This document shows positions 30,761 to 60,215 of a stretch of 64,000 bases of DNA, one piece after another. The first letter of the stretch is position 1, and each line of letters begins with the position of its first letter. The stretch is taken from contig OZ244651.1 in NCBI GenBank assembly GCA_965218695.1, forward strand, positions 672,001-736,000. Reading direction: 5' to 3'. The position numbers and the translations under genes are program-made. The DNA is from Nitrosopumilus sp. (lineage in GTDB: Archaea; Thermoproteota; Nitrososphaeria; Nitrososphaerales; Nitrosopumilaceae). Under the pieces are notes generated by a model. That model saw only the letters and a list, made by a program, of their open reading frames with translations, made no database searches and was not told the origin of the DNA.

Positions 30761-33393
30761 GGGCAAAACTGGCTGCAGCCGTCGTCGTGTTTGCCGTAAT
30801 TGGCGCGGCGTACGCCGGACTTGCAGAGGACGCGTTTGCCAAACAGCTCCAGATAACGACGGCCCGCGGCAACGTCTTTACCGTAAAGGTTGACATGCCG
30901 GTCAACAGCACGCACACGATCCAAATAATCAACAACATGCAGGTAATCAACAACACCGACCCCGGGATAACCTTCCCGATGGACATAGTCACGAAGAACG
31001 CAGAGGGCCACGTCGTCTACGGGAACGGCACGATTGGTGCAGAAAAGCCGCTGGACCCGTACACGTTTCCCGGAGAGTTTGAGTTTGTCGCGGCCGTGCT
31101 GGACACAGACGCCAAGAATACCATGCCCATACCCAAACTCTTGGCAAAATACGAGATGATTAATGACGACTCGCTGAACTGGATAGAGGACACCGACGCC
31201 GGGGACAACATCCTGGTTCCGCTTGACGTGGATCCTGCAACATACGGGAACGGATGGAAGGTGGAAGGAGATTGGACAGTACTGGACAACTCCCCCGGGG
31301 AAAACCGCAAGACACGGGCCAGCATAGACCTCCCGCTAAACGAGATGCTTACGATGAAGGGCGAGATTTCAAGCGGCATGACGGTTCAAATCATATCAGT
31401 CGTGCAACCTTTCAATCCCAACACAGTCTATAGTTACAATAAACACGTAACGTCGTCTTCTTTGTCTTTGGAAAAAAATTACATAGAGTATGACGGCCCG
31501 ACGTACAATGGCCGCATACCCAACCAATGTTCATGGTGGCCAAGCGAATTGACGAAGCAGGGATTCAAGACCAATTATCCAAGCCCCGGAGACGGACTCG
31601 GACCCAATCCAACCGTCTATTATGGGCACAATGAGGTAGCCACGAGCGCGGGCTGCGCCATAGAGTCGCACCTGAATCCTAATAATTTCAATGGTGCCTG
31701 GGATACGGGTCATACGATATACGCAGAGACACTACGCGGCGCCTACGGGCTCACCATTTATCCAAACGTCTACGCCCTTGGTTGCCAATCATCAACCCAC
31801 GTGAGCGTGTCGGCAAGCTACCGCATGGGCACGACCAGCGGCACGACCAGCGTGTCTGTACCGTATACGGGCACGCCGACGGTAAACTGTGTCAGTGAAC
31901 ACGGATACCAAAAAATCACGAGCATCAGCATCCCAAGCCAGTCAATAGAAAAAGAGATAGATCGTGTTGATTTGTTTGATTACACAAAAACGCTCTACAT
32001 ACCCTTGAGCGCGTCTGTCAGGATCGACATACCGCAAATACCGCCCACAATACAGGTGCTGCACTCGTTCAGCGGACAAGATTTCAGCCATCCTTTCACG
32101 ATGCAGTCATACAGCGGAAACCTGTATCTCAGGATTGTCGGCGGCGATGCCACGTCGACGGCGCAGATCAAGGCATTCGAGGGCGAGGATATCCCGCCGG
32201 CCTTCATAGTCACCAACATGCCGCCAAACGCGCCGTACAGGATAACGGCCGACGGCATTACCATAATATCCGGCCTGACGTCGAGCACAGGCGGCATAGA
32301 AATCATTCAGGCAGACATGGATTTTGACTTTTTTGGGGACAAGGATCTCGAGCTTGTGATATGGCCCGACTCCATGTCCAAGCGCGGGGGTAGCGACGCC
32401 GTGATGTTTGACGCATACAACAAAGAAATCAAGGACATCAGGTGGCACGTTCCAATCATATACGTCGCTGAATCCATGCTGCAGGTAAGCATAGATCAAG
32501 ACGGCATGGACATTGCCGGAGTCATATTGGAAGGCGGGTCTGACATCAGTTTCGATGAGCGCCAGGGGTTGTACAATGACGGGGACGAGTTGTTTGTCCC
32601 GCTGTATTCCGATGCCAATGCGATTGCAATCAGGGTCAACGGGGAATGGGCAGACGGCATCCTGGCAGATATCCAGCAGTTTCCGCATTCTGCACGAATG
32701 TCAGACGCTGAAAACACCGCGACCAAATACGCTTTCAGTGATGACATGGGATTCACGGTGGCGCGCGCGTCTGACAGGATCTCCGCGTTTGCCAACAGCA
32801 CCGGCGACATGCAGGTCAGGTTCGTCAACGCCAAGGCGTCTGGATACACAGAATTCCCGTTTGACTCCTATTACTATGGAAACTTTACCCCGCCCGGGGC
32901 ACCAAACACGGAGGAGTGTTTCGTACACGACAGGTGCGGTGTATGGGTGGACAGTGCCACGCATGCAGACCCGACCAGCGTCAGTTGGGGTTCGATAACG
33001 CAGTGGGTAATAGACAACAATCCGGCGGGGGTGCAGCAGGTGATGGCAGCACAGGGGCCGCTCACGGTACATGTCAACGCGTACGTAAACGGCGAATGGG
33101 TCCAAGGCCAGACGATATTTGAAAGCACGGACGTCACTGTCGTGCCCGGCGACTTTCTGGACAGGCGCCTCGTATACCAGTACAACGGCGGCCTGGAGTA
33201 CGGCATGGAAGACGACGATGCAACCATGCGCGTGCCGGTCCAGGCAGGCGACTTTGTGGAGTTTGTGGTGAGCTCCAGAACAATGGCGGCCTCGACCCCG
33301 GTGTATGCGGGCAGTGGCACTTCAGCAGACGTGTGGTGGGGAAACAGCACGTCGCGAATCCACAGCGGCCTCATGCTAGTCAGCATGCCGTGA
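30757..33393 (+). CDS. Large secreted beta-rich protein (about 878 aa), candidate adhesin or pilus-associated protein
   Basis: Signal peptide MRAKLAAAVVVFAVIGAAYAGLAEDAFA; T/S/G/Y/N-rich; no catalytic motif seen. Confidence 0.75.
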   Translation: MRAKLAAAVVVFAVIGAAYAGLAEDAFAKQLQITTARGNVFTVKVDMPVNSTHTIQIINNMQVINNTDPGITFPMDIVTKNAEGHVVYGNGTIGAEKPLDPYTFPGEFEFVAAVLDTDAKNTMPIPKLLAKYEMINDDSLNWIEDTDAGDNILVPLDVDPATYGNGWKVEGDWTVLDNSPGENRKTRASIDLPLNEMLTMKGEISSGMTVQIISVVQPFNPNTVYSYNKHVTSSSLSLEKNYIEYDGPTYNGRIPNQCSWWPSELTKQGFKTNYPSPGDGLGPNPTVYYGHNEVATSAGCAIESHLNPNNFNGAWDTGHTIYAETLRGAYGLTIYPNVYALGCQSSTHVSVSASYRMGTTSGTTSVSVPYTGTPTVNCVSEHGYQKITSISIPSQSIEKEIDRVDLFDYTKTLYIPLSASVRIDIPQIPPTIQVLHSFSGQDFSHPFTMQSYSGNLYLRIVGGDATSTAQIKAFEGEDIPPAFIVTNMPPNAPYRITADGITIISGLTSSTGGIEIIQADMDFDFFGDKDLELVIWPDSMSKRGGSDAVMFDAYNKEIKDIRWHVPIIYVAESMLQVSIDQDGMDIAGVILEGGSDISFDERQGLYNDGDELFVPLYSDANAIAIRVNGEWADGILADIQQFPHSARMSDAENTATKYAFSDDMGFTVARASDRISAFANSTGDMQVRFVNAKASGYTEFPFDSYYYGNFTPPGAPNTEECFVHDRCGVWVDSATHADPTSVSWGSITQWVIDNNPAGVQQVMAAQGPLTVHVNAYVNGEWVQGQTIFESTDVTVVPGDFLDRRLVYQYNGGLEYGMEDDDATMRVPVQAGDFVEFVVSSRTMAASTPVYAGSGTSADVWWGNSTSRIHSGLMLVSMP

Positions 33394-33513
33394 TTGGCCA
33401 AAACGCGGCATAATTGAAAGATGATACACCATACTGTACCAATAGCCGTACATGCCATGTTTACTTATCGTGAGTACACATCCCTTTATCACTGACGGAA
33501 CACCAATAATGTC

Positions 33514-34249
33514 ATGAACCTGACCAACCCACGGATCTTCATCCCGCTGGCGTGGCTTGGCTTGACTTGGCTGCACGGCCGCGTATTTCGTGGCGGCGTT
33601 CTGGCTGCCGAGGCCTGACTTTGCAGTCCAGGAGACGGCAGTGTCGGTAAGCAGCATACTTGAGATTTGGTGGCACGAGATAATGGGGAGCGCGCCAGTG
33701 CTGATACCGGGGTTCGGCGCACTTTGGGGCATTCTTTCCAGCATGGGCTTTGCCCACTCCGTGTTCTTCATGTCAGAGAACGGTATGTTTGCCATGGGAC
33801 CGCAGTTCATGTTCGTGACGTTCCCGTTCCTTTCACTGTACTTGTTGGCGCAGTGCATCATGATCAGGCGCGGAATCCTGATACTCATGGCCTTGCGGCA
33901 GCCTGCAGAGACAGAAGAGGTGACAGCAGCGTACCACGAGCCCGAACAAACCGCTGGATGGAGCGAAAGTGGCAACGGGTATGGCATATCCATGCTTGTG
34001 GACAAGCTTGCTCCGATGGCCAAACCGTTCCTGCGAGATGCCGGCATATTCTTCGCTCTGCTGTTTGTCTCGGCAATACTGACGTTCGTGGCGTGAGGCG
34101 ATGTTCCGTCAAGCACGACACTCCAGGCATACTGGACGTACGACGGCATGCTCGACTATTTGGTGATGCTGCCAGACAAGATTGGGGAATTCGTGCCCGC
34201 CGTTGATTGGGATGCCGTGACCGGCATTATGTGGGATTCGCTTGCCTGA
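33514..34249 (+). pseudogene. SpoIIM-like multi-TM membrane protein pseudogene (frameshift plus premature stop)
   Basis: ATG 33514 is 10 nt out of frame across CTTGG-CTTGA-CTTGG (33556-33570). IPGFGALWG motif. The frame stays open for 50 codons after TGA 34094-34096. Confidence 0.6.
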
Positions 34250-34344
34250 TCCCCGGCCGGCGTGTCATAAGGAATTGATCTGCTGCCGCGTGAACAATCC
34301 GTAATGGGATCATGGCGGCATGCATAACTCACGTTAGACCATAT

Positions 34345-34378
34345 TCAAAATAAAAAAAAGAAAAGGGGTGTGTGTTTT
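34345..34378 (-). terminator. Oligo(T) terminator after the S-layer gene
   Basis: The minus strand reads ccccttttctttttttttatttt just after the stop. Confidence 0.6.
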
Positions 34379-36285
34379 CTAGTTTACAGTTATTGCTATC
34401 GTTGCGGTCGGTGAGAGTGCAGTTGGGTTGTTGATGGATTCCCAGACGAACGCAGTCACGTCATACGTGCCTGCCTCATCTGGAGTCCAAGAGACTGCCA
34501 CACTGAGTGACTGTCCTTCTGTCAGCGAACCCTTGATCCAGTCAAGTGAGACCGTTACGCCGTTTTCATCCTGTACCTGTATGAGGTAGGCAAACTCTTG
34601 TGCCTTGTCCTGTCCGTTGGTCACGTCAGACTCTAGCTGAATCTGGGTGTCAACGGATACGGTGTCAAGCGTGTTGCCGAACGAATCGACTGCTCGCAGG
34701 TCAGATATTGGTGCCCTCTCCAATGGTGGTACGATAGTACCAATCAGAGTGGTGGCGCCTACCCTGAGCCTTTCTGTCTCCTTGAACGGTGCCGGTAGCG
34801 TGTTGTCGTAGTACTGCGCGGTAACGGTGTCGCCCTCTACTACCCTGAGCCTGTGGCCGCTGGTGTCAACTCCAACACCAAAGAAGACGGTGCCTTCAAA
34901 GATGCCGGTTGCAGCATTGGTCTCAGTCACGGTGAGGTCGATTCCGCCTCCGTCAGAGTCGGACCAGACGGTCACGTCGAAGTTGTCGACTGCCTCCGGG
35001 TTCAGGTTCATGTCAGGATCGATGATCCTCACTATTCCTGATCCGCTGGCAGGATAACTTGCCTCGAGCCACTGGACCTCGCCCACGTTCCACCTGATTA
35101 GGGCGGAGCTGCTGACAGTCTCGCCGTCAGAGAACTTGAAGGATACGGATATCCCGCTTTCACTGTCGGTTTCTATCTGACCGTCTGTAGGTCCGGTTCC
35201 ATCGGTTATTCCCGATGCGTCGCCGTCGTTGCCGTCGCCGTCTGCGTCATGGGTGCCAAATCCTGTCAGGATCACCTCGCCGGTAAATATGCCGGTGTCG
35301 GCGCCAGTCTCGACGAGCTTGTACTGTTCAAGCTCGTTTCCACGGGTTGATATCCTTACCGGATAGTCGTCGGTGTTGCCCACCTCGTCTACCTGGTCTG
35401 AGTCGGTGTTGTGGTCAGGTGCGACTACTGTCACGTAGACCTTGTCAGTCCACGTGTAGACGCGCTGGTCCAGCTCGATGGTTGCTCCAAAGTTAGACGT
35501 GTAGATGGTGGTGGAGACTTCCTCGTCCTTGTCTCCGACAAAGTCAGAGCCGGACGGTCCCCAGTCGTTGTACGTCAGGGTGATCTCCTCGCCTCGTTGT
35601 AGCGTGCTGCCGTCTATCTCGTCTGGAATCGTGACCACTACCTGGAAGATTCCAGTGTTGGATCCGGTTTCAAGGAGATTGGAGGGCGTCGCGCCGAACG
35701 CGCCATCGTTAAGCGTTTTTGTGCCTGCATCAGAGTCCCATTCGATCAGGTCAAGGACGTATGTCTCTGTGGTGTCGCTGTCAAGGTTCAAGTCTGGTTC
35801 GATGAGCGTCAGTATCGCGTCGCTTCCGAGGATGTACGCAGTCTGGTCGGACTGGAGTACGCCGTTTCGCAAGTCGAAGGTTGCAGAGTCAGTCACGGTG
35901 TTTGAACTGCCGGATGCGTCAGACGGGTCGTTGTATATCACGTGGAGAATGTCTCCCTGCAGTATACAGCCCGGAGATTCCAGTGAAACCTCGTCTAGGA
36001 GGTCAGGTCTCGGTTCCTCGACGTCGTTGCTAGTATTATCGTCGACGTTGTTCGCCTCTCGAATCGCTGTGACGTCGGTGACATATGTGGCATATCTTAT
36101 TGCGTTCTCTGCTTCAATCCTGTCATTTATGTCGTCAATTGTGTTTGCGTTTATTTCGTATTCCACTCCGTTGATGTCTATTGTGTCAGCCAATACGGCC
36201 ACGGGACAGTTGCTGTCAGACGGGCCTTTGTCGAATGAGACTTTCACCTCGTGCTCGAATATGCCCGAGTCAGGGGCAGTCTCTA

Positions 36286-37387
36286 TAGTGAAAAGTGAAA
36301 GTTCGTTCCAAGTTCAGCACCTCAGACCGAAAACTATGTAGATCAGCCGGTCGCCTAACGCGGCATGATCAAAGTAACACGGGAAGAACTCGAAGTAGCA
36401 TACAAAAAAGAAAAGGACCTCAGGGTGGGAGCCAGAATGCTTGCAGTACACATGGTACATTTTCGTAAAATGAGCATAGATGATGCGGCCGTCAATCTTC
36501 TGCGATGTCCCAGGTGGGTACGCAACTGGCTGGAACGCTTCGAGAATGGAGGTCTACAAGGCCTCCGGGATCTTCCCAGATCCGGCAGGCCGCCCAAGAT
36601 TTCACCTGAAGCAATGGACGGCATACTGGACAAGGTAGACCGGTTCAAGACCACTCCTGCCGAACTGCAACAGGTCATACACAGGGAGACGGGAACAAAG
36701 ATGCACAGGACGAACATCAGGAAAATCATGCAAAAATACGGTCTGTCCCCCAAGGGGTCGCAAAGGATCCACATCAACAGGGCCACCAAGGCAGCCGTAA
36801 AAAGCTGGCAATATCGCCTCAAAAAGAGAATTTCACGCCTAGAAAAAGACGGTTTTGTCCTGGCCGTGCAAGACGAGGCGTTCTTCATACACGACGTAAA
36901 ATCTGGCCGCAAGTATTGGTCCCCCGTGGGGGTGCCAATAACCGTGCCATACACTGGAAGCCACAAAAGAATTACCGCGTACGGTTCAATTACAATGGAT
37001 GGCAGGCAGTTCTTCAGGACTGCCAGCGGGTTTAACGCGCCCACTTTTGTTGCTTATCTCAAGGCCATGCAGAGGCATTTTGGGAAGGTTGCCGTCCTGG
37101 TGGACAGGGCGTCCCCGCACCGCGCAAAAGCCGTCCGGACGCTGCTGCGCGAGAACAAGAACATCAGGATCATATACCTGCCAAAAGGCTCACCGTATCT
37201 CAACGCCGTGGAAGAATGCTGGCACCAGGGAAAACGGAACCTGCTTGTTTCAGAATACTACAAAACCTTCTTGGACATGCACAGTGCCGTCTCCCAGTAC
37301 TATCGAACTGCGAGATTCAATCTGGATTTGATCAAATTCTTTAACAGAAAAGCCGAATTATTTTGCAAGAACTTTTGATCGCCACTA
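36286..37387 (+). mobile_element. IS630 family element a
   Basis: TA duplication (36284-5 and 37388-9) at a CTAG target. Imperfect TIRs tagtg...aaagttc. Confidence 0.92.
36365..37378 (+). CDS. IS630 family transposase
   Basis: DLPRSGRPPK, QDEA, VDRASPH and LPKGSPYLNAVEECW. Confidence 0.95.
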   Translation: MIKVTREELEVAYKKEKDLRVGARMLAVHMVHFRKMSIDDAAVNLLRCPRWVRNWLERFENGGLQGLRDLPRSGRPPKISPEAMDGILDKVDRFKTTPAELQQVIHRETGTKMHRTNIRKIMQKYGLSPKGSQRIHINRATKAAVKSWQYRLKKRISRLEKDGFVLAVQDEAFFIHDVKSGRKYWSPVGVPITVPYTGSHKRITAYGSITMDGRQFFRTASGFNAPTFVAYLKAMQRHFGKVAVLVDRASPHRAKAVRTLLRENKNIRIIYLPKGSPYLNAVEECWHQGKRNLLVSEYYKTFLDMHSAVSQYYRTARFNLDLIKFFNRKAELFCKNF

Positions 37388-40109
37388 TAGTATTGGTGTG
37401 CCGTCCTGTCCTGCCGTCTCCAATGGGTACGTCTGGGAACCGCGGATTACTGAGACGCTCAAGAGTGAGGTGTCGTCGTCCGTCTCGATGCGGTCTATGC
37501 CGTTGGCTGACTGGTCAAAGTCGGCATCGTTGATGCTGACGTATACGGTCAGGCTGCCATCGTCAATAACCACGCCGTCGGTATGTGTTTCGAATACGGA
37601 GTTGTTCTCGGCGGTGCTGCCCATGGTTCCAAACGGTACCGGATAGACGGTCCTGTCAAGGCTTACGGATCCGGTGTTGGATCGTATTCCCGCAGAAGCG
37701 CTTACCGATATGGTTGAGCCGGAGTCGTCCCTGAAGTCAATGTACTCGACTGAGATGTCCTTGCCCGTGATGGACTCAACGTCGTCTGCATCCGTACAGT
37801 GCTCTGCCGGAGCCGCGAAGGTGCCGACAAACACGCCGGTGGCCGCTCCGGTCTCCTGAAGCGTGAACTGGGTGTCTGCAAGTCCATAGTTGCTGGTGGC
37901 ATCAGAGAAGTCTGATTCTGCACAACCGTGGTTGGTCCATAGCTCGCCGTCAAAGGATACACTGAGCAGTGCACCGAACTCGTCGTCGTCGTTGAGCGTG
38001 TGTACGAGCAGCAGGTCGCTGCCGACCCTGTCGTTGAGATTTTGCGTTTCCATCACTGCGGCTTTTGCCTCAACAGGTGGGTCAGCATCAGTATCTGCTG
38101 CTACAGCAGGTTCTGTTTCGATCATGCCAGAGACCACCGTATAGACGTCGGCCTTTCCGCTGTCAACGTTCAGGTCTGCGTCCTCTACCGTGACTACTAC
38201 CGTGTCGGCTACCCTGTAGCCGTCAGAGCCAAGTGACACCACGCCAGAGTGTGTCGGGGTGTCGGCCTCGGCCGTAAACAGCGTGGTTCCGCCGGTGGAG
38301 TCAAGGTCTAGGTATTCCACGGAAACAGAACCGTCGTCAGAGATCAGTATGATGGAGTCGCCGGATACATCGATGTTGCCGTACGTCGCTTCATCAAGTA
38401 TGTTGATCTGGCTGAGTCCGATGTACTCCAGAGTGCCTGTAAAGTCACTGCTGTCGTCTCCGTCCTCGTCGAGTTCAAGCCTGTAGATGGCGTCGTTGAC
38501 GTTAGTCTCTAGATCGGCTTCGAGGCCGAAGGTAAAGACGTCAAATGTTACTGCGCTGGTTTCAAGTGCGTCGTCTTCAGCGAATGTAAGCGTTATTCGG
38601 TTAGGCATCATTTTGTCCTCAGTGACAATATATCTGTCAGCATGGCTGGTCGAAATAGAGGTATTTATCTCATCAGCTTCCTCATTTACGTCGTCAGTAT
38701 CTGGATCATCTATAACTGCAGCTCTGAAGTAATTAACCGCAATAGTGGCGTCTTCAAATGCGCTAAAGTCATAGTTTACCACTTGGAATGTGGTATCGGG
38801 GTAGTCAGCAGCAGTCATGCCAGTCAAATCGATTGTTAGCGTACCTACCCTGGTTGCGTCGTCATCAACGGTTATCAGAGCTCTTTGACTGACAGCCACG
38901 TCCCTAACTTCGTCCGAGGAGGTGTTGCTAACACCAACAAGGTCGTCAGAGGTCAGGGTCGCTTTTATGTTGGTGGTAAGGGTCTGCGGTGTTCCAATCG
39001 TTATGGTTGGAATCATGTGGTCCGGATTTGAAATGTCAAGATCGTCGGCATTCCCCGTGTTGGTGTTGGCGTCGGCGTCAGTCAGCGTAATGCCGATCTC
39101 CTCGCCTGAGCTCCATTCGTCGCCTGCGTCTATCACGACGCGGGCAGTGCTGAACCCAATGGAACTTGTAGAGGTGCTGTCGTATGTGACTGAAAATGAC
39201 AATCCTCTTGCAGCGGCTGCAGTAGTGCTAAGTTCGTCGTTGATGAATTGGGTCTCGTTGTTGCCATCCTCCGTAAAGGTTATCGTGGCAATGGCGTCAG
39301 TTCTCTCGAAGATGTTGGTGCCCTGATTATCAGGATCGTCAACACCTGTATCTCTCATAACAAATGTGATGCTGTCGTCGGTAGTCTTGTTACTGCCATC
39401 GTCAACCAACAGGGAATCACCTCTCTGGTTGTGCGTGGTGATGCTGAGATCCTCGATATCGTCATCAGCAGCAGCATCGGCATCGGCAGTGAAATCGGCA
39501 GCACCGTTACCTAGGTAGGTTGCAGCACCGTTTTCGTCAAATCTCCATACGTCGTCGTCTGTTGGGTCGACGTTGAGTGCCATGTCGTCAAGCGTGATCT
39601 CCACGGCGGTGTTCTGCGGGTACGAGTTCCTGTCAAGGCTTACGCCGGATGCTGGATTGTCAAGATCCAGAGTCACTGTCTGATCGCCTCCAGGCCTCTG
39701 GTAAACGACGTCGAATTCGCCGGCGTCTGCATCAATTCTCATGACGGCGTCAACCGTAAGTGCAGGCTCAGTTGTTGGTGCGTTCCTGATATGGTTCTCC
39801 AAACTAACCGTACCGAATGGGAAGTCGTCTGATACAAAGTATCCGTACCAAGCACTACCCCTGAATCCCATTGTGAGATCTTCATCGTTAACTGTTACCA
39901 ATGGCTGCGTACCGGCTACATCCGTCAGTTCATCAAGGATCACGACCTGCACGATGTTGGTGTGGGCAATCTCGTTGCCCGCGTTTTGTCCCTCCGCTGA
40001 AACCTTCAGGTTCGGGTTGCTTGATATCTGTGCGGCCTGTGCCGGCTCCATGCCGGGTATGGCAAACGTGAGTCCGCCTGCCACCATTATCGTCATTAGC
40101 GTTAAACTA

Positions 40110-41210
40110 TACTGACACGCAAAAGTCTTTGAGCAAATGCCCTAGCCAACCGCAAAGTTTCTAGATCAGACTTTCTTTCATGGAGACATGGACGACTCCA
40201 AACTGGAAGAACTAAAAAAAGCGTGCAAAAAAGAAAAAGACCACAAGGTTCGGGCTAGGATGGTCACGGTACGCATGGTTCGCGTGTTCAACATGACCGT
40301 GGAGGAGACTGCCGACATCCAAGGACGGAGCCCAAACTGGGTCCGCAACTGGTTGAGCCGCTTCGATGACGGAGGCCTGCAAGGCCTCCGTGATCTTCCC
40401 AGATGCGGACGGCCCAGAAAGATCCCGCAAGACGTCATCGACGGAATAATTGCAAAGACGGCATGCCATAAAATCACGCCCTCGGAACTGCAACAGAACA
40501 TACACCATGACACGGGCGTAAAGCTTCACATCACGTACGTCAGGAAGATCATGCACCAGTACGGCCTGTCCCCGAAGGCACCACGGAAAGTCCATGTTAA
40601 CAGGGCCAACAAAAAGGCCGTGCAGAACTGGAAATACCGCTTCAACAAGCGCGTTTCACGCCTAGAAAAGGAGGGATTTACCACGGTAATGGAGGACGAG
40701 GCAATCTTCATACACGACGTGATAGTCGGCCGTAAATATTGGTCCCTGGTGGGCCATCCCATAAGCGTGCCGTACACCGGCAGCCACAAGAGGATCGCAG
40801 CGTACGGCTCGATCGCAAAAGACGGCAGGCAGTTTTTCCGGACGTACGAGAAATTTGACGGACCCACGTTTGTCAGATACCTCAAGGATCTGCACCGGCA
40901 TTTTGGCAAGGTGGTAGTGACGGCAGACCGGGCCCCGCAGCACCGCTCAAAACTGGTAAAGGAATTTCTGCGCAGCAACAGGGATGTCAAGATGATCTAT
41001 CTGCCAAAGGGCTCGCCGTACCTCAACGCGATGGAGGAATGCTGGCACCAAGGAAAGCGCGTCCTGCTCGTCTCGGAATATTACCGGACATTTCAGGACA
41101 TGCACCGGGCAGTTTCGTTGTATTATCGAACCGCCAGGTTCAAGCTTGACATCCTCAAATTTACCAGCCGAAAATATGAGGCATTGTGCACAAACTTTTG
41201 ATCGTCAGTA
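40110..41210 (+). mobile_element. IS630 family element b, a diverged relative of a
   Basis: TA duplication (40108-9 and 41211-2) at a CTAG target. TIRs tactgac...caaaagt. Confidence 0.92.
40188..41201 (+). CDS. IS630 family transposase
   Basis: DLPRCGRPRK, EDEA, ADRAPQH and LPKGSPYLNAMEECW. Confidence 0.95.
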   Translation: MDDSKLEELKKACKKEKDHKVRARMVTVRMVRVFNMTVEETADIQGRSPNWVRNWLSRFDDGGLQGLRDLPRCGRPRKIPQDVIDGIIAKTACHKITPSELQQNIHHDTGVKLHITYVRKIMHQYGLSPKAPRKVHVNRANKKAVQNWKYRFNKRVSRLEKEGFTTVMEDEAIFIHDVIVGRKYWSLVGHPISVPYTGSHKRIAAYGSIAKDGRQFFRTYEKFDGPTFVRYLKDLHRHFGKVVVTADRAPQHRSKLVKEFLRSNRDVKMIYLPKGSPYLNAMEECWHQGKRVLLVSEYYRTFQDMHRAVSLYYRTARFKLDILKFTSRKYEALCTNF

Positions 41211-41362
41211 TAGTTAATTTGAATAATCACACCACTGCTTCAGACCTTACGCGTGACCGGTGCGCAGACGCGCACCTTCCTGTATCGGACAAACATCGAC
41301 TAGCCGTACTGTCCTGCCCGAGAATTCCTTCACCCTTAAACGTAAAGGAATGACTCGGTTTC

Positions 41363-41836
41363 GTGAACCAGATACTGGCCTTCATGTTGCTGATTGCAGT
41401 CTCCATGGCGATAGGATTTCCGCTGGTCTTCTTTGGTACCGAGAGGTTTGGGGACGCGGCACTGAGCTACCGCGACTTTGCCGAACAGTCAAGGATCAGA
41501 TCAGGGCAGTCCATAGCCGTGACATATCTGTGCAATGCCGATGGCCCTGTCAGCGGAACCGTGATCAATGTGGGACTTCAGGACATTACTATATTTGCCG
41601 CCTTGGCAGACGACGAGGTGCTGTGCACCAACGGCGGCCCCAACAAGTGTCCAGGCGGCGATTTTGACCTCACAAGTTACGGCGATACCGTTGGCAAGGA
41701 CGGTGAGCCATTTATGCCAGAACAGATTGCAAACTTTACGACCGGGACGAAGAACGTGACTGATGCGGTGCGGTTTGTCACAGAGAGCGGCAAGCTCTTT
41801 GAGATTCCGATATCTGACGTGACTGCCACGTGCTGA
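41363..41836 (+). CDS. Archaeal type IV pilin/archaellin-like protein
   Basis: N-terminus (V/M)NQILAFMLLIAVSMAIG, VINVGLQDITI and C-terminal RFVTESGKLFE, which are archaeal pilin-like motifs. Confidence 0.65.
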   Translation: MNQILAFMLLIAVSMAIGFPLVFFGTERFGDAALSYRDFAEQSRIRSGQSIAVTYLCNADGPVSGTVINVGLQDITIFAALADDEVLCTNGGPNKCPGGDFDLTSYGDTVGKDGEPFMPEQIANFTTGTKNVTDAVRFVTESGKLFEIPISDVTATC

Positions 41837-42522
41837 TCTTGGACATTCCCACCTTTTGTCAGACAGACACAATCCATTCCGGATACTGTTGTCTGGCCTG
41901 TTCCAAAGAATCCTGCCAAGTGCCCTGGACGGAACTGCTCTTCTTGCGGGTCAGCGCCATGAGCAGTGCGGACCTAGCGTGCAGTTTGCAGCGGTTCTAG
42001 GAGTGTGGTGCCTAATCTGCGGTGATCTGGTGCACGCCGAGTGCGACTGACCCGTTTGTAACTGATCATGGCATGCAGATGGTCAAAAGCCAGACACGCA
42101 TCGATTCTGCCTGCAAGGACACAGCAGGAGACACGCATCAGCAAAATGAAATGAAATAGAACAAAATCATGTGCCGCCTGCGGTCACGGCAATCTTTATA
42201 CCGTACGGTAATGTACGGTAAAATTATGGGCTTATATGCTAATCCCGATTTGATGGTAGCCGACCATCCCAAACTTGGTGAGTATGGATCAAGAAGCAAT
42301 TCCTGAAATGTGGCCGGCTACCAGCTGTGCTTTGCTCCCCAGAGAATTTATGCTTTCAGTAGTATGCCGATAGCGTTCTGATGGCGAATTAATGGATAAA
42401 TACCCCAAACTCCAAACCCTAATTGGTGAGTATGGGTACAAGGAGGCTAACTATAGATTTTGTCAAGTAAGGCAACTTTAACTGCCGCGATCAATACCAA
42501 AGGATGCAAAATCATCGACGAG

Positions 42523-43350
42523 ATGATGGCAGAGTCGGCTGCCTCAAGGGGGATCGGCCTGTTGAGGAAACTTTCCGGAGGCCCGTGCCTCTGCAGTGCG
42601 GCGACTGCGATAAATGACGAGGTTGCAGGCGAGACACTGTGCGGGGTCTGCGGGGTCGTATTGCATGAGAGGGAGGCGCGTATGGTGTGGGATGGAATGG
42701 GAGGTTGGCACGATGTACGGCGCGCTACCGGGCGAAGCGGAAGGAGCATTACTGAATTTGTAACTACCCAGAGGATGGTCAGCGGCGCAACCGATGTCCG
42801 GCGGGATGCCCTGATGCGAACGATAATACCCATGCTGGAGCACGTGTCTGCCTCTGCAGTAATAAAAAACGAGGCAGAGTCGCTGGTAAGACGCATGACA
42901 TCAGACGGGTTTGCCAAAGGCAGGCACCGACTGACATTGTGCGCAGGGACGGTTCTGGCGGCATGCCGCGTGCACGGCCGCATGATAAGGCGCGAGGATC
43001 TGGCAATGCTCACGGGCACCAGTTTCAAGGGGGTGAGTCGGATTTCAAGGGGCATAATGGAGCGATACGGCCTGAAACCGCTCTCCATAGAGGACAGGAC
43101 AAGGCGCGTACTGTCCCGGATGTGTATCGATGTCGGCGCTCCCGGTCTGCTGCGCCCGGCGCTTGACACGTATGATGCCATGCTGCTTGCAGGGCATGCC
43201 TCGGGCAAGAGCCCGTATGTAGTGGCAGCGTACGTGCTCCGCCTCCACACGAGGCGCATAATGTCAGAAGAAAAGTTTGCAGAGAGGGTGGGAGTGCCGC
43301 ACCAAAGCATGCAGAGATATGTTGGGGGATTGATGCCCAATGCCTGCTAG
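42523..43350 (+). CDS. Divergent transcription initiation factor IIB (TFB)-like protein
   Basis: Zn ribbon C.C...DEVAGETLCGVCGVVL. Cyclin repeat 1 KGRHRLTLCAGTVLAACRVHG and repeat 2 SGKSPYVVAAYVL...FAERVGV. TTG 42460 is an alternative start. Confidence 0.8.
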   Translation: MMAESAASRGIGLLRKLSGGPCLCSAATAINDEVAGETLCGVCGVVLHEREARMVWDGMGGWHDVRRATGRSGRSITEFVTTQRMVSGATDVRRDALMRTIIPMLEHVSASAVIKNEAESLVRRMTSDGFAKGRHRLTLCAGTVLAACRVHGRMIRREDLAMLTGTSFKGVSRISRGIMERYGLKPLSIEDRTRRVLSRMCIDVGAPGLLRPALDTYDAMLLAGHASGKSPYVVAAYVLRLHTRRIMSEEKFAERVGVPHQSMQRYVGGLMPNAC

Positions 43351-43578
43351 GTTTTGCGGCGATTTTGCCGGCGGATGTAAAGGATGCAGGCAAGCAGGAG
43401 AATAGACGCCCGTGCAGTTTCGTGTTTTGTGCCATGAGGAAAAGACACCACATATGCGCGCGCGATATGCGGGAGGAAACCAGAACAGTCTGATGGAATG
43501 TTTAGTAATCGGATTGGAGTGGCATGCCATGTCTGATGCACGATATAAATATTTAAGATAGCCAATCATGGAATTGAC

Positions 43579-43839
43579 ATGGGAAAAGTAACCATAATAA
43601 CTGAATCCTTGTTGGCGTGGTGCGACAACTGCGAGGCAGAATTCACTCCCAGGATAGTGCGCAAGATCCACACCTGCCCAAGATGCAGAACGGCTGTGCT
43701 TGGCGCCGAAGACGTGCCGCTTCGAGGCCCGGGCGTACACAAGGTGATTAAAAAGACGATCAAAAAGGCCGACGGGGCCAGCTCCGTGATCAGCAAAAAG
43801 CCTGCACCCAAGCGGGCCAAAAAACCCGCCTCCAAATAG
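43579..43839 (+). CDS. Small Zn-ribbon protein with a Lys/Ala/Pro-rich tail (paralog 1)
   Basis: CDNCEAEFTPR...TCPRCR and tail KKPAPKRAKKPASK. AT-rich TATA-like region upstream. Confidence 0.75.
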   Translation: MGKVTIITESLLAWCDNCEAEFTPRIVRKIHTCPRCRTAVLGAEDVPLRGPGVHKVIKKTIKKADGASSVISKKPAPKRAKKPASK

Positions 43840-44114
43840 GCCAAGAGGCATTCCGGGTTTTTATTGGAATCGTGCATGAACCGCATGTGCACGATGGCTC
43901 GGTTCTACGCCCTGGCAGAAGATGATCAGAAGAGACCCATAGAGGATGCCAAAGCAAGATGGCATCCGGCATGATTTTTTTGTACCGTCAGTGCCGGGCT
44001 CATAACTACTCTCCTGCTGCAAAACAGATGCAAACCACAACATGGATGACTGTGCGCCGTGTTTATATTGGATACTTGTTGTAACTATTTAAATTAGTTA
44101 CGTATTAACAATAC

Positions 44115-44309
44115 ATGGGAAAGGTAACCATAACCACAGAATCGGTTCTGGCGCACTGCGATGCATGCGGAAAGGACTTTACGCCCAGGATAGCCCGCAG
44201 GATCCACACCTGTCCAAACTGCCGGACCGCCGTTACCGGGGCAGAAGACGTCCCGCTTCGCGGCAGCGGGGTTGACAGGGTGATTGGCAGAAAGGTAGAG
44301 ACTGCGTAG
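44115..44309 (+). CDS. Small Zn-ribbon protein (paralog 2)
   Basis: MGKVTITTESVLAHCDACGKDFTPRIARRIHTCPNCRTAV, colinear with paralog 1. Followed by a T-tract. Confidence 0.75.
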   Translation: MGKVTITTESVLAHCDACGKDFTPRIARRIHTCPNCRTAVTGAEDVPLRGSGVDRVIGRKVETA

Positions 44310-44596
44310 TGACCGGAGTTTTTTTTTTGTGATGCCGGCTGCGTGCTCTTCTGGCGGAGTCTGGCCGTGCAATCGTCCGGACACGCCCGACTCCCCCTCC
44401 CCTCTCCGCTGACAGGCATCCTCTGTCTGGGATGATGGCCGTTCTCCCCCTCCCCATCTGCAGACGCCACCACCGAGCCAAGCCACGGCACCCCACCGGA
44501 GGTTTGAGGCGAGCCAGAGCAAAAGATTCCTTGGGATTCCAGCACCCTGACGACACTCCGGTTCCCCCTTTATATCAAAACCATCTCATGCGCGTA

Positions 44597-44938
44597 ATGT
44601 TACACAAGACAGAAAATGATGACACGGACATAGGCGGCATCCTGAAGAAGGTCATCATAGGCGCGGCCTTTTTACTGGTACTGCCAATAGCCGTTCCGGC
44701 ACTCACCGGAGTCGACATCTACGAACTCTGCATATCTGACGGCGACGGCGGCTGCAAGGAACCCGCTGCAGCAGAGGGCGACGCAAACAAGCTGAGGGAC
44801 GGGTTTGAGCAGCTCAAGCCGATACTGGTGGTGATGCTGGATATCTTCTTTGTCGTCATAGGGCTGGCAATACTGTTCGGGCCGGGCATGTCGCTCATCA
44901 GGTACCAGTTCGTGGCACGCAATGCGACATCGCATTGA
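44597..44938 (+). CDS. Small 2-TM protein, candidate VirB2/CedA1-like conjugative pilin
   Basis: Two hydrophobic helices (KKVIIGAAFLLVLPIAV and ILVVMLDIFFVVIGLAILFG) around a Cys-pair loop. TTTATA upstream. The pilin call is inference only. Confidence 0.55.
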   Translation: MLHKTENDDTDIGGILKKVIIGAAFLLVLPIAVPALTGVDIYELCISDGDGGCKEPAAAEGDANKLRDGFEQLKPILVVMLDIFFVVIGLAILFGPGMSLIRYQFVARNATSH

Positions 44939-45314
44939 CAAGCCAGCCGCCCTGGCAGCAGCTGTCCTGATTTTTTATTTCGTCTTGGATCAGGGGTATC
45001 ACGCCGCGTGGATCCCGGTGCTGGCAGGAATCTGGATATGCGGGATGCGCGCCGATCTCGTCTCCACTTTCAGGCACGCTGACATGATAAAGTACGAATC
45101 AAACAGACTGCTGGCAGGATGCGTGCGGCGGTACGGCGCAAGGCGAGCCGTGCCAGTGTGCCTGGCATGCGAGGCAGGATTCATCCTGATGGTATCGGTA
45201 CTGCTGAACAGGCCGGTCGGGTTTGATGTGGCGGATTTCATGTTCATTGCCGGGGTTGTTGGCGCATGCCACATGCATTGCGCCAAGTCAAACGAGAACT
45301 TCAAGCCGGCATGA
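44922..45314 (+). CDS. Multi-TM membrane protein
   Basis: About four hydrophobic segments and a D..ST...YESN.L motif. Confidence 0.6.
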   Translation: MRHRIDKPAALAAAVLIFYFVLDQGYHAAWIPVLAGIWICGMRADLVSTFRHADMIKYESNRLLAGCVRRYGARRAVPVCLACEAGFILMVSVLLNRPVGFDVADFMFIAGVVGACHMHCAKSNENFKPA

Positions 45315-45315
45315 T

Positions 45316-45978
45316 TCACTTGGATGTGGCCTTTGCAGCGCATACCGTATCGTCTGATCTTGCCTCTGCCAGATAGTCTGATCTTTTGCTTGTCTGGTTG
45401 CCGAATTCCTGCGTGGCGCTCCAGACGTGCGATTCAAACTCGGCAAGGCTTTGGGGTAGGGGGTCCTCCTTCCATTCCCCGTCTTCTGCCCGAATGCGCA
45501 TGGAGAACTCGGCTTCTTGGGTTCCGCTGTTTTGTGCCTCCACCACGTAGTATGCGTGACCAGAACCGATCTCAAACACGTCAAAGCGCAGTATCTGGCA
45601 TGACGACTCCCTCGTAAGCGAGTCTGCCAGCCCGCCGCCAAAAGTGTATGCGATTGCAGCGCCGGTTATGGAGATGCCGACTAGCAGCATGACGCCGGTG
45701 ATCTCCGAGACCATCCTGACACGCCTGCCGCGGCGGGGCGGGTTCAGAAAGCACGGGCTGCGCCTGATCAGCCTGCCATAATAGTACAGGTCAAGGGTGT
45801 AAAGCCTGCCGTCTGGCGTGTTCTTCACCGAGACAAGCCTCAGCACTTGATTATTGACCCAGATAGAGTCGTCAGGTCCAAGTTCCCGCACGAGTTCTGC
45901 GAGCCTTTCGGGCCTGAAGCCGAGGTGGCCGCAGAGTCGGAGAAAGTGTTCGTGCCGCTTGTTTTTTTGGTTCATCAT
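45316..45978 (-). CDS. ORF whose C-terminal 132 aa (from ATG 45714) is an archaeal type IV pilin-like protein
   Basis: MVSEITGVMLLVGISITGAAIAY resembles a mature pilin N-terminus; VEAQNSG strand. The start overlaps the VirB4 stop. Confidence 0.65.
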   Translation of the reverse strand: MMNQKNKRHEHFLRLCGHLGFRPERLAELVRELGPDDSIWVNNQVLRLVSVKNTPDGRLYTLDLYYYGRLIRRSPCFLNPPRRGRRVRMVSEITGVMLLVGISITGAAIAYTFGGGLADSLTRESSCQILRFDVFEIGSGHAYYVVEAQNSGTQEAEFSMRIRAEDGEWKEDPLPQSLAEFESHVWSATQEFGNQTSKRSDYLAEARSDDTVCAAKATSK

Positions 45979-47483
45979 TCCACCGCGGTGTTGAAATACG
46001 TCTCAGTCTCTTCTTTTGTCGCCTCGAACTTTACCTTGACCCGGTGTTTTTCAGTTATTATCAGTCCCTGACCCTTGGCAAACCTCATCAGGCGTTCGGT
46101 CTCCTCGTCTGTGAGATTCATTATGTTTTGGGCCGACCTTGCCGCGTCCTCTTCGAGCCTCATCAGAATCTTGGTTCCCATGTTGTCTATCATCTTGCCC
46201 TCTGCGCCCTTTTCCTGCGCGATGTCATCGACCCTTTGCGAGATGAAGACGAACTTTACGTTCAGTTTCCTGCCCATGCGGACGATCTGTTCTATGTACG
46301 CCATGGCGCCGGGCATCTTTGTGAGTAGCCAGCCCTCGTCGACTACGATTATCTTCTGGCGGGACTCGGGCATCTCTATGACCCTCTTCCATATCTTGTT
46401 CAGGACCAGCAGCAGTATCAGGACTTCATGCGGCTTGCCGGTGGCGCCGCTCAGCGATATTATTGTGCGGTCTGTAATCTGGGACTGCCCCTGCATGATC
46501 TTTGCCAGCGGACCCTCCACGAGGTGCTGCAGGTATTTTTTGGAATGCTCGCTTACCTGGTCGTACAAGTCATGCACGGACTTTACCTTGTCGGCAAACC
46601 TGAAGAACTCGTTGGATACTGCCTTGTCCTTGTCTTCTGCCTGCGTGACACCGGCAAGTATGGATGCAGCGTCTGCGGGATCCAGGATCTTGAACGGGTC
46701 GATGCCCAGCTTCTCATCGCCTGTAATCATCATGCCGTCAAGGCCGTAGTACCGGCGGTGCCGGTAGTACTCGTTCATCGGATCCAGCACGAATACTGCG
46801 GGGCCCTCTTCTGTCTCGTCCTCGTCTAGCAGCCTCTGGATGAGCCGTTTGACAAATATCTTTGCCGTAAACGACTTGCCCGAGCCAGACGTGCCTATTA
46901 TGGCGACGTTTCCGTTGGTGCGGCGGACGATGTCGTATATTGCAGGACCGTGCGAGTCCATGTTGTACCCCAGCAGCACGCCGTTTGGCATCTCTATCAT
47001 CTCTGCGGAGACAAACGGGTACACTATGCTCATGAATGACTGGTCTACTGTTATGTAGTGGACCCACCTGCCATGGTACAGGCTTCCCTGGCGGCTCATC
47101 GTGGCATCGAACTTGCCTCCCGTGATGCGCGTGTGCCTGAAGAATTCCTTTGTGTTTGCGTTTAGTTCCTTGAGGGTCTTGCCGTAGAGCATCACAGTCA
47201 TGCCAAACCGGTACATCTTGCCGACGCCGTTGTTTAGCATGTCCTCGACGGACTCTGCCTTGGCGTACTCGTCGGCTGCCCTCCTGTCTGTCTGGGAGCG
47301 CTTAAACAGCATCGAGCGCTTTTGCCTCAACAGGTTCAGCGACTGCTCCCTCTCCAGCGGATCCACCCACACGTCAATCTGGTTGCATGCAGAAAACACG
47401 CCGTGCACCCACGCCCACTGGAGTTGCGAGGGAACGTCGTAGAGTACCATGCACCTGACAAACCCCCCAGAATACTCCATGTG

Positions 47484-48819
47484 CAGTAATCCCAGATGTG
47501 CTCACGGAGCCACGGGATCTGGCGGTGGCTCGGGCTGAATCGTAATATTCCGATAGATTGCTATTAGCGTGACAATTTTCATATACAGCTGCGTCACCGG
47601 AAGGACTCCGTCACGCAGCTTCAGAAAGCTGGCCAGCTGCGCGTTTACCAGCACCCACGCATTGAATAGCATCAGCGAGTACAGAAAGCAGAAAAGCCGG
47701 GCAGGCCTACTGCTGCCGAACGATTTCGCCCTGGCATTCTCTACCAGTCTGTAGCATGTCTCGATGGTCCACCTTTTGGAATATTCCTCTACATCCATCC
47801 ACGGGGCATTGGTGGCAAACGCAATGTATCGATCTTCCGGCGCACCTGCCTTCTTGTCCCCGTTCTTCGCCCCCTCACTTTCCTTCCTTACTCTCTTCTT
47901 CTCTGCTATGATCATGTGGTACTGAACCGTTGCCTTGTCAGAATTCGTCATGTCGGATTTTGAGATGGGGCCGAGCGTTTTGGCCACGAACTTGCGCAGC
48001 GAGTCTTTCACCCTACTGGTTCTGGTGCACGGCATCAGGTACTCAAGGCTAAGACGCTCAATCTCGGATATTGAGTTCACTGAAAAGAAGCCCCTGTCAA
48101 CCAGGATCAGTCCCAGCCTGGATCCGACGGCGGAGACGTTTTCTAGGCACGAATTGAGGATTTCACGCAGGGATTCGTGCACGGATGAGGACTTGTCCAC
48201 GTATAGGGCCGCAAGGATAAGCCGCGATTTGGAGTTGACGCACTGCGCCGTGATGTACGCCTCGAATCTGTTGGTGCCGCTCTTGCGCTCTCCGCCTCTC
48301 AGGTCAGAGCCAAGTTTCTTGCTGTGGCACGGTATCAGGTGCATGTCGATGGCCACATCAAGCACATCAGGCAGCCTGCCAAACAGGTAAAGCTCATCCA
48401 GCTGTGCCCTTACCGCCTGGTTAAAAGTCTCAAGCGCCTTACCCTCGTCCGTCTTGGACAGGATATCGCGAAACCACTCGTCGCTTGGAGAATGACGTGA
48501 ATATCTTGGATTCTCGATGGACTGCGCCGTGATTTCTCTCATGGCGAAGCTGCATCCGCCGACCGAAGTGTCAAGCATCGCGGCATGCAGCATGCCGACG
48601 TTAAAGTCGCTTGCGCCATATGTCGCGTTGTACCTTTTGGAGACCTCGGCGGACGGCACGATGCTTTCTCTCAGCACCTTCTCAACAGATTCATATATTT
48701 TGCCATTGTTCATCATATCGCGTCTCAGGCGATCTTTTTGGTGGTACATAAGGATCGTCTGGGCGTGCCCCCATTGATCTGTTTGCATCAGGTGCTAGAT
48801 GGCACATCTGGGATTACTG
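47484..48819 (-). mobile_element. ISH3-like (IS4 superfamily) element
   Basis: 18-bp TIR cagtaatcccagatgtgc and TSD catgtg (47478-47483 and 48820-48825). The TSD is 4 bp if the TIRs extend one base. Confidence 0.88.
47502..48788 (-). CDS. ISH3/IS4-like DDE transposase
   Basis: VAID.HLIP, K.GT....YIT, VDRGFFS, FATN, YSKRWTIETCYR and FNAW. Confidence 0.9.
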   Translation of the reverse strand: MQTDQWGHAQTILMYHQKDRLRRDMMNNGKIYESVEKVLRESIVPSAEVSKRYNATYGASDFNVGMLHAAMLDTSVGGCSFAMREITAQSIENPRYSRHSPSDEWFRDILSKTDEGKALETFNQAVRAQLDELYLFGRLPDVLDVAIDMHLIPCHSKKLGSDLRGGERKSGTNRFEAYITAQCVNSKSRLILAALYVDKSSSVHESLREILNSCLENVSAVGSRLGLILVDRGFFSVNSISEIERLSLEYLMPCTRTSRVKDSLRKFVAKTLGPISKSDMTNSDKATVQYHMIIAEKKRVRKESEGAKNGDKKAGAPEDRYIAFATNAPWMDVEEYSKRWTIETCYRLVENARAKSFGSSRPARLFCFLYSLMLFNAWVLVNAQLASFLKLRDGVLPVTQLYMKIVTLIAIYRNITIQPEPPPDPVAP

Positions 48820-49415
48820 CATGTGCCCCAGCCTCTCCCGCTCAAAGGTTATCCTTGCATGCTCGTCGTCGACGGTATACTCGTACATCAGTGTATCCAG
48901 CATGCCTGTGAGCGGCTCGTTGGAGGCGACTAGCACCTGCAGCACCAGGCGCATCTCGGTCCTGCCGCCTACCATGAGGGGGACCGACTTGCGCGAGAAC
49001 GTTATGCGGATCGGCTTTTCAATGGAGCGCAGCAGATCCAGAAATTCGCCAATCCTCTGCTTTTGCCTATCCTCCGGAAGGGAGTGAAAGTTGGACGGAT
49101 CTATGGTGTAAAAGTATTCGAATCTGTTCTTCTTTTTTGCCGGCACCCTTTGAAGATTCGTGTGGGTTAAAAAGGGGGGCTTGGGCCGGGACTTGTTCCC
49201 TCTTGACACCGACTGTTATTCCCGGCACTACGCGTAGTACTGGACAAAAAATCTGATCATTATCCAGCAAAATCAGGCATATATTTAAAGAAAAAAGAGC
49301 GAAACATTCTGTCTGCTACTGCGCGTAGCAGAAGAATGCATGTGTAATTACAGGAGATTCAGATTCCAATAGAGCTAAATCACATATGTCATGACGGATC
49401 CCAATGCAGTACATT

Positions 49416-50963: not shown

Positions 50964-51161
50964 ATTAAGCAATAGGCTCGTCAGGGAAATAGCTGCATAG
51001 CCAGGACGCTTGAAAACTCTAGTCCTCGTTGACTCGTAGCTTTTCAAATATTTTAGGATCCATCCAATATTCTGGTCTTTGATGAAATTCTTTACCTGCA
51101 AAGTCCTCCGGCTTTAATTCATGTATTCCTGTACCCGCTCTCGCTCTGCCTTCGTTCTTTG

Positions 51162-52687: not shown

Positions 52688-52821
52688 GTTCTTTGTATCT
52701 GGATTTGCCTTCAGATATGTGCCTGCCATGAAAAATTCCTTCGTGCTTGAATAGAAAATATGCGTAATCCGGAACTTTTTCAAACTCCGCGCTGACATGT
52801 TAGCCCTGCTGTCAAAAATTT

Positions 52822-58763: not shown

Positions 58764-58859
58764 GCCAAGATTATCCCGTCATGCCTGCCCCGTGTTTTTG
58801 TGTATGTATATAATATAAAGTAATATAATGTTTATATGGATTGGTGCCGTATAACAACC

Positions 58860-60044: not shown

Positions 60045-60215
60045 ATGGAACCCAAAACGTTTGCCAGAATGTTGTTGCTCGTGGTGGCGGTGTTGGTCAT
60101 ATTGTCGGTAGCGTGGCAGGTCATTGCGCCTGCCGCGTGTAACGACCCGCCTGAGAGCCTGAAGCATGACTGGTTCGTGTTCCTGTGCGACCAGTACCGT
60201 CCTTCAACCGGGTAA
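60045..60215 (+). CDS. Small single-TM protein
   Basis: MEPKTFARMLLLVVAVLVILSVAWQVIAPAAC...LC; followed by a T-tract. Confidence 0.5.
   Translation: MEPKTFARMLLLVVAVLVILSVAWQVIAPAACNDPPESLKHDWFVFLCDQYRPSTG

Follow-up and report, generated by a model that had tools for sequence, protein, structure and literature searches.

A 64,000-nucleotide (nt) stretch of contig C1 of the Nitrosopumilus sp. genome G000 (G000:C1:672001-736000; the window) contains a putative surface-layer (S-layer) protein gene that is interrupted by two insertion sequences (ISs) and lacks the start found in its relatives. This paralogue, called W in the following, lies at 34379-41220 on the minus strand, where the list of open reading frames (ORFs) gives two minus-strand frames, 37385-40096 (903 amino acids, aa) and 34379-36247, and two plus-strand transposase ORFs of 337 aa, one between the W pieces and one before them. 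W was restored by scripted removal of two segments that each comprise one IS and one TA dinucleotide (elements a and b, Table 1), with the coordinates rechecked. The IS-free gene is a single frame of 1544 codons plus stop that begins KLTSLTLMTIMVAGGLTFAIPG; the frame opens KLTSLTLMTIMVAGG and runs through all 1544 codons without a stop or frameshift. Upstream of its first codon (K) the codons read GTG GTG TGA TTA TTC, the TGA (41227-41229) being in frame with W and three codons before K, and the IS-free frame offers no ATG, GTG or TTG between this TGA and the first remaining ATG (40094-40096), which reads MTIMVAGG.... W keeps the hydrophobic core of the signal peptide, MTIMVAGGLTFAIPG, while the methionine head (MNNEIGRK-type) is missing, and the 150 nt 5' of the gene show nothing that resembles a TATA box. 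The reconstruction thus agrees with a preliminary description of this DNA, which had proposed that excision of both insertions yields one frame with neither a start codon nor a TATA box upstream.

Only one PDB sequence is matched by both W pieces, 8c8k_A, a 1734-residue 'cell surface protein' that is the Nitrosopumilus maritimus S-layer protein NmSLP. The N-terminal piece aligns through residues 508-897 with chain residues 710-1114 (E 4.3e-76) and the C-terminal piece through residues 106-634 with chain residues 1197-1732 (E 1.9e-242). The S-layer model NF052345 matches W partially, at 74.6 bits and below its cut-off of 1400, and a Pfam scan of the W S-layer pieces returned no match. The restored protein has 291 D+E against 60 K+R (net charge -231), and a steady N-to-C charge gradient was not seen in it. 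Judged by homology along both pieces, W is a gene for an NmSLP-type S-layer protein, as had been claimed at the outset. PMC11153153 describes NmSLP as ten immunoglobulin-like domains, with N-terminal domains 1, 2 and 4 outermost and glycosylated and the C-terminus oriented towards the membrane.

Both insertions are IS630-family elements. NF033545, the equivalog model for IS630 transposases, matches their ORFs with 172 and 170 bits (cut-off 100; E-values of 2e-50 for element a and 6.7e-50 for element b), and both ORFs contain DDE_3 and helix-turn-helix (HTH) domains in Pfam; the junctions place a TA on both sides of each element, within CTAG, and excision restores the W frame. Element a was inserted after codon 903 of the remaining frame, and element b has inverted terminal arms of 32 nt that are 78% complementary. 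IS630 elements prefer CTAG targets, and across G000 the left flank ends in cTA for 7/8 copies of element a and 5/7 of element b, with the right flank beginning TAg for 8/8 and 6/7, respectively. The palindrome AACTAGTT, previously regarded as a special site, is explained by the conserved leader Thr-Ser codons ACT AGT, which form the CTAG site, and is an ordinary target of these IS630 copies. W's insertions share with the family the transposase, the TA duplication, the terminal inverted repeats and the CTAG target, and nothing about them is unusual. Seven copies of element a, W's own included, are 100% identical (one more is 99.9% identical), and the same holds for seven copies of element b; because each of W's copies is identical to six others, the insertions into W appear to be very recent. 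Since the TA duplication at element b is intact, this element did not remove the head, a point on which the preliminary description was right.

G000 contains dozens of near-identical IS630 copies, a typical source of misjoins, which raises the question of whether the assembly has misplaced IS copies into an intact S-layer gene. We regard such an artefact as highly improbable in view of the contigs of four public runs from one study (X1-X4), possibly including the source sample of the assembly. A contig spanning 41184-41743 bridges the upstream junction of element b in 4/4 runs, contigs span both junctions of element a (35849-36312 and 37363/4-37673), and no IS-free joint is listed in the contigs of these runs, although the runs are perhaps not independent.

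The sequence upstream of W derives from another mobile element. At 41242-41327 lie 86 nt that share 81% identity with the terminus of a full element (G000:C1:925920-927248) and correspond to the 3' end of its 320-aa ORF, which matches PF07282 (Cas12f1-like/TnpB TNB domain) at 1e-19. The copy beside W, separated from the K codon by 21 nt, still encodes a TnpB-like C-terminal peptide whose stop codon is in the corresponding place. Shorter remnant copies occur at three further sites, and all four aligned copies lose their likeness at 'aaggtct'. TnpB genes carry a guide RNA and the transposon right end at their 3' end. From these alignments we assign 41242-41327 to the right-end remnant of an IS200/IS605-type TnpB element. 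An Rfam scan of 33000-46000 gave no match, and the spacer at 41221-41241 has no similarity to the heads of the other S-layer genes considered below (A, B and C of G000 and G002_1 of a related genome). Solo TnpB right-end remnants are also found in intergenic DNA at G000:C1:1594374-1594548, 1529278-1529388 and 312534-312594, one of them between a DUF4443 gene and an eRF1 gene.

A whole-genome search with both W pieces identified four large paralogues and a distant one of 1057 aa. Besides W, the large copies are A and C, both intact, and B, whose frame is divided (Table 1); the W 3' piece shares 83-90% protein identity with the three, and the first ~170-180 nt of W are 84-90% identical to theirs. 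A has an ATG head and a TTTTAAATAC box ~30 nt upstream, and C has an ATG head following a conserved 'caataacATG', with no such TATA box within 60 nt. In the leader of B, 21 nt before the conserved ATG, sits a 1599-nt IS that is flanked by an 8-bp duplication and is identical to four other copies; upstream of this IS the TATA box and ATG head are intact. The body of B is split by a 1.29-kb IS with a 5-bp duplication and ~24 copies in the genome. These insertions demonstrate that IS hits in or near the head do occur in G000. With both ISs removed, the head of B is out of frame with its body by a single base at an A6 run (G000:C1:479171-481000), which reflects either a genuine lesion or a misassembled homopolymer. 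Each of A, B and C accordingly has its own ATG head, A and B have a consensus TATA box, and W is the sole headless copy of the four; the TTTAAATAC-type TATA box of A, B, G002_1 and low-GC relatives is absent from W. An orphan W head was not encountered either: when the assembly was searched with A, B, C and G002_1, each represented by its head and upstream region, the sites of A, B and C were the only three to match. Since A and C are intact, the expressed S-layer must presumably be encoded elsewhere than at W, as the preliminary description had concluded.

The heads of related genes were surveyed from a search that gave a match at E <= 1e-8 in 82 of 121 genomes, one of them G000. Among the best-match loci of 28 other genomes in the genus, 28/28 have an in-frame methionine head, most reading MNNEIGRKITSLTLMTIM, which bears out the start given for such genes in the preliminary description, and the head was likewise present in all 11 N-terminal copies of genome G128 and both copies of G129; in low-GC relatives a TATA box is located ~30 nt upstream of the ATG. 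The headless exceptions are W and G002_2, from the closest relative, G002. G002_2 is intact (1628 codons) and reads ATG GCA TGA, followed by no ATG, GTG or TTG until MTIM. It is paired with the headed G002_1, the two lying tail to tail over 12.6 kb end to end (G002:C1:1049755-1062554) and sharing a near-identical leader block of ~80 nt in inverted orientation. G002_1 falls into three frames and has a clear +1 frameshift in at least one place; its frameshifts may be errors of the assembly. Between the two genes is an IS66-type transposase gene, and an IS630 lies ~0.4 kb past the headless end.

Comparison of the two genomes revealed that different parts of these genes have different histories. 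In identity profiles, W pairs with G002_1 (78-93% identity) and C with G002_2 over approximately W nt 770-2700, whereas from ~nt 2950 to the stop the copies resemble those of their own genome (79-98% within G000 and 88-98% within G002, vs 61-88% between genomes); the first ~250 codons of W are 51-66% identical to G002_1 and not orthologous to it. IQ-TREE recovered (W,G002_1) and (C,G002_2) from the middle block and (G002_1,G002_2) vs (W,A,B,C) from the 3' block, with support of 100/100 in each case. Synonymous divergence (dS) in the 3' block is 0.03-0.47 within G000 (W-B, B-C), lowest in the last ~330 codons, and 0.52-0.80 between genomes. Given that the block trees conflict and that the identity profiles and the dS contrast agree, we conclude from these alignments that the membrane-facing third, a converted block corresponding to the last 1.65 kb of the gene, evolves concertedly by gene conversion within each genome, while the N-terminal and middle domains, predicted to face outward, diverge between paralogues. 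In the conserved 5' block, the copies share 81-90% identity. Over the 55-63 nt that follow the stop codon, the 3' flank of G002_1 is 95-98% identical to those of W, C and B, with A absent among the matches, so that the conversion tract takes in the 3' untranslated or terminator region. The pairing also means that a W-type body is headed in G002 and headless in G000, and a C-type body headless in G002 and headed in G000.

Against this background, W is probably an IS-driven pseudogene of a redundant S-layer paralogue in a gene-converting family. A TnpB element would have inserted into the head or immediately ahead of it, and most of this element would later have been lost, by deletion or rearrangement, along with the start codon and promoter of W; the IS630 insertions would have followed the loss of the head, very recently. 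The S-layer would be made by A (intact, with a consensus TATA box) and perhaps by C (intact, with an altered TATA box), which may explain why the damage to W was tolerated. The preliminary description had offered a related idea, that W is a host gene displaced when a mobile element integrated into its 5' end and supplied a new S-layer. The first half of this is consistent with the TnpB remnant and the non-syntenic flank, which point to mobile DNA having replaced the 5' end of W; the second half finds no support in the other S-layer copies, which lie 44-230 kb from W, or in G002, where the orthologue of C adjoins that of W.

Several observations weigh against our reading. The 1544-codon frame is fully open, and the ratio of nonsynonymous to synonymous divergence (dN/dS) is no higher for W (0.24-0.70 vs G002_1) than for C (0.28-0.72 vs G002_2); this would mean that W was constrained until recently and fits an old loss of the head poorly, so that W either lost its head not long ago or remained useful without one. 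G002_2 is intact even with no start codon upstream of MTIM, and headlessness may not mean silence. Finally, we infer the order in which the TnpB insertion and the deletion occurred, the ancestral flank being hidden by IS-scrambled synteny.

These same points raise the alternative that the missing head never silenced W, i.e. that translation begins at the internal ATG (MTIMVAGG...) under a promoter further upstream and that the IS630s were the only inactivating events. Besides the open frame and the ortholog-like dN/dS, this is favoured by the situation in G002, where the headless gene is intact and its headed neighbour frameshifted, by the conservation of the internal ATG in every copy examined and, weakly, by the start that gene callers chose for 10 among the 29 best database homologues (M[AT]IM, MVAGG or similar), which reflects annotation and not DNA. 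However, 28/28 other genomes keep the head with its K/R residues, an indication that it is important, the 150 nt 5' of W lack a visible TATA-like box, and G002_2 need not be expressed if the frameshifts of G002_1 are assembly errors. We therefore consider an internal start unlikely.

A further alternative is that W serves, or served until the IS630 insertions, as a silent cassette for donation or storage in a system of S-layer variation by recombination, modelled on slpA/slpB of Lactobacillus, sap of Campylobacter fetus and pilE/pilS of Neisseria. Variable outer-domain segments would pass between well-promoted copies and copies that are promoter-poor or headless by way of two homology arms, the conserved 5' block from about -30 to +170 and the ~1.6-kb 3' block. 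In favour of this reading, G128 has nine full-length paralogues (1591-1675 aa), eight of them distinct, and two short N-terminal fragments (loci L124-L132, e.g. G128:C5:36200-41600 and G128:C1:857600-863300). The nine have identical heads and are 94-100% identical over the last 1.5 kb, with middles down to 37%, and the nearest neighbour shifts along the gene (L129 with L130, then L124, L127 and L125, in patches of 93-100%), which indicates mosaic paralogues; the consensus TATA is kept in 3/9 copies, and the rest differ by point changes in the box. Added to this are the concerted evolution of the 3' block, the conserved 5' block common to W and the headed copies, as switching of the slpA/slpB or sap type would need, the open frame of W, the tail-to-tail pair in G002 with its inverted leader block, and the swap of head-body combinations between G000 and G002.

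Other observations weigh against such a cassette. The preliminary description had envisaged a single expression site, whereas three of the four copies in G000 carry their own heads, two of them with a consensus TATA. The break point of W does not recur in any other copy, and the restored 24-mer across the element b site occurs nowhere else in G000 with up to 4 mismatches allowed. Nor was the anticipated recombinase found near the junction: the window has no match to PF00589, the tyrosine recombinase family, and the genome none to PF00239, the resolvase family, the enzymes found nearby are all DDE transposases, and the three PF00589 matches of G000 are located on C9 and at C1:1.607 Mb and C1:2.263 Mb. 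The stretches fetched around the G002 pair likewise contain no recombinase, only IS630 and IS66 transposases and a thymidylate synthase. A dedicated recombinase is not required in RecA-dependent switching systems. The contigs of the four runs hold no alternative junctions, a weak test as contigs drop rare variants. W and C are both on the minus strand, in direct orientation and 44 kb apart, and the plus-strand copies A and B are over 200 kb distant; the invertible geometry is thus absent at W and present in the G002 pair. A simple two-state flip does not explain the two genomes, given that the first ~250 codons of W and G002_1 are not orthologous, and W is now broken mid-gene by an IS. On balance, a cassette role for W is quite unlikely.

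The block trees and the G128 mosaics show that recombination among S-layer paralogues is real in this lineage. That switching is programmed is doubtful, and nothing in the window shows it. It is similarly improbable, to our mind, that the S-layer genes of the lineage constitute a recombination-driven surface-variation system in which the head/leader block and the 1.5-1.6 kb tail act as homology arms, and we hold little expectation that W will prove to be a store caught after IS damage, the G002 pair a two-state version and G128, with eight mosaic paralogues and graded TATA boxes, an expanded version of such a system. If true, it would be the first antigenic-variation-like system described for an archaeal S-layer. 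A literature search on S-layer phase variation or gene conversion in archaea, which left subscription journals mostly uncovered, found no report of recombination between the S-layer paralogues of ammonia oxidisers.

Beyond the TnpB remnant, the flank upstream of W is not syntenic with the S-layer region of G002, the downstream side being partly so, and the ancestral 5' flank of W was not recoverable through G002 synteny owing to IS scrambling at the S-layer loci of both genomes. The flank encodes a TFIIB-like protein, a HerA/TraG-like ATPase, a VirB11-like ATPase, an ArdC-N-like protein and at least five DDE transposases. The ATPases and the ArdC-N-like protein are roughly in keeping with the earlier statement that W lies next to pilus/conjugation genes; a Pilin_N match is weak and falls short of the Pfam cut-off. 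The TFIIB-like protein, this pilin-like ORF, the HerA/TraG-like and VirB11/T2SSE-like ATPases and the ArdC-N-like protein make up a plasmid- or conjugative-element-like gene set that is cut by ISs and extends over 42460-59630, where no integrase or att repeat was found. Two IS66-type copies (51190-52596 and 54072-55478) enclose another transposase gene. Integration of the flank (41.3-60 kb) at a tRNA-Gly gene (60102-60194) was considered and rejected, as a repeat of the tRNA region is absent from the window; ARAGORN predicts this gene as a tRNA-Gly(GCC) whose 93 nt, long for a tRNA, may include an intron. The 157-aa ORF that bounds the remnant has no Pfam match, and its region has a paralogous stretch (78%) at C1:524041-524549. 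Next to it, at 41881-41997, lies a repeat of ~117 nt with more than 25 genome copies at 71-75% identity, several of which adjoin IS copies; it is probably an IS end or a miniature inverted-repeat transposable element (MITE). Pfam gave no match for the ORFs immediately downstream of W, taken from both strands (33376-34149, 33590-34096 and 33667-34206), or for an 885-aa ORF.

Table 1. Features of the W locus (window coordinates unless a contig is given) and related S-layer loci.
Feature	Position	Strand	Remarks
W 3' piece	34379..36283	-	Stop codon 34379-34381; inside the block homogenised among the four G000 paralogues
IS630-family element a plus one TA	36284..37387	+	Transposase ORF 36365-37378; in a CTAG of W
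W middle and N-terminal piece	37388..40107	-	First ATG, signal-peptide hydrophobic core, variable outer domains
IS630-family element b plus one TA	40108..41210	+	Transposase ORF 40188-41201; inside AACTAGTT, 15 nt upstream of the ATG
W 5' stub, ten bases (codons K, L, T plus TA)	41211..41220	-	Conserved 5' block, severed by element b
21-base spacer, TnpB-element end to K codon	41221..41241	-	In-frame TGA after GTG GTG
TnpB-element 3' remnant (IS200/IS605-type): last TnpB codons and right end	41242..41327	-	Same orientation as W
157-aa hydrophobic ORF, divergent, bounding the remnant	41363..41836	+	Part of the non-syntenic flank rich in mobile elements
Paralogue A	C1:496153-501390	+	Open frame of 1737 aa, intact
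Paralogue B	C1:480901-487294	+	Frames of 672 and 1052 aa
Paralogue C	C1:657980-662779	-	1627 aa, intact
Post-stop flanks	window 34318-34378; G000:C1:657922-657976, 487298-487351; G002:C1:1054420-1054482		95-98% identity

Taken alone, W is an ordinary case, a redundant copy destroyed during IS expansion, and we believe that the wider interest resides in the S-layer family around it. The S-layer of these ammonia oxidisers is an ammonium-concentrating sieve and also the surface that is seen by viruses and possibly by hosts. Its outward domains differ strongly between paralogues, while the inner third appears to be kept identical by gene conversion, and frequent exchange between copies, should it occur, would give an archaeon a means to change its coat.

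Some features are shared with known switching systems. As in slpA/slpB of Lactobacillus acidophilus and sap of Campylobacter fetus, W is a promoterless and startless copy with a shared 5' block, and the G002 pair has the tail-to-tail geometry of slpA/slpB. Unlike these systems, G000 has several promoters and no invertible unit, W is broken internally, no recombinase is present in the window and no inversion variants appear in the contigs of the four runs. Interlocus gene conversion within a surface-protein gene family is known from pilE/pilS of Neisseria, which the conflict between block trees, the low synonymous divergence in the converted block and the G128 mosaics resemble; in contrast to pilE/pilS, nothing here shows that conversion is programmed, frequent or aimed at one expression locus.

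Closer to home are the sponge-associated ammonia-oxidising archaea. Passages of PMC6790972 describe an expanded S-layer protein set, with six expressed in one symbiont, and an enrichment of transposases, and those of PMC7848895 describe genomes high in G+C and rich in transposases; several S-layer paralogues, high G+C and many ISs are traits that G000 shares with them. These passages mention neither headless or IS-split copies nor mosaic paralogues or a concertedly evolving 3' third, and the literature search, with its limited reach into subscription journals, likewise found nothing on headless copies, concerted evolution or mosaicism of S-layer genes in ammonia oxidisers.

The nearest comparison is with N. 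maritimus itself. W is homologous over its length to NmSLP (Nmar_1547) and its paralogue Nmar_1201, best in the C-terminal third; both W and NmSLP are very acidic and conserve the signal-peptide core, and W differs from NmSLP in lacking the start codon, head and promoter and in harbouring two IS elements. According to PMC11153153, N. maritimus carries this second S-layer paralogue at 91% identity, one of the pair being dominant, and G000 is likewise multi-copy. The outer domains of its four paralogues, however, share 37-68% nucleotide identity where they can be aligned, a divergence far beyond that of the N. maritimus pair.

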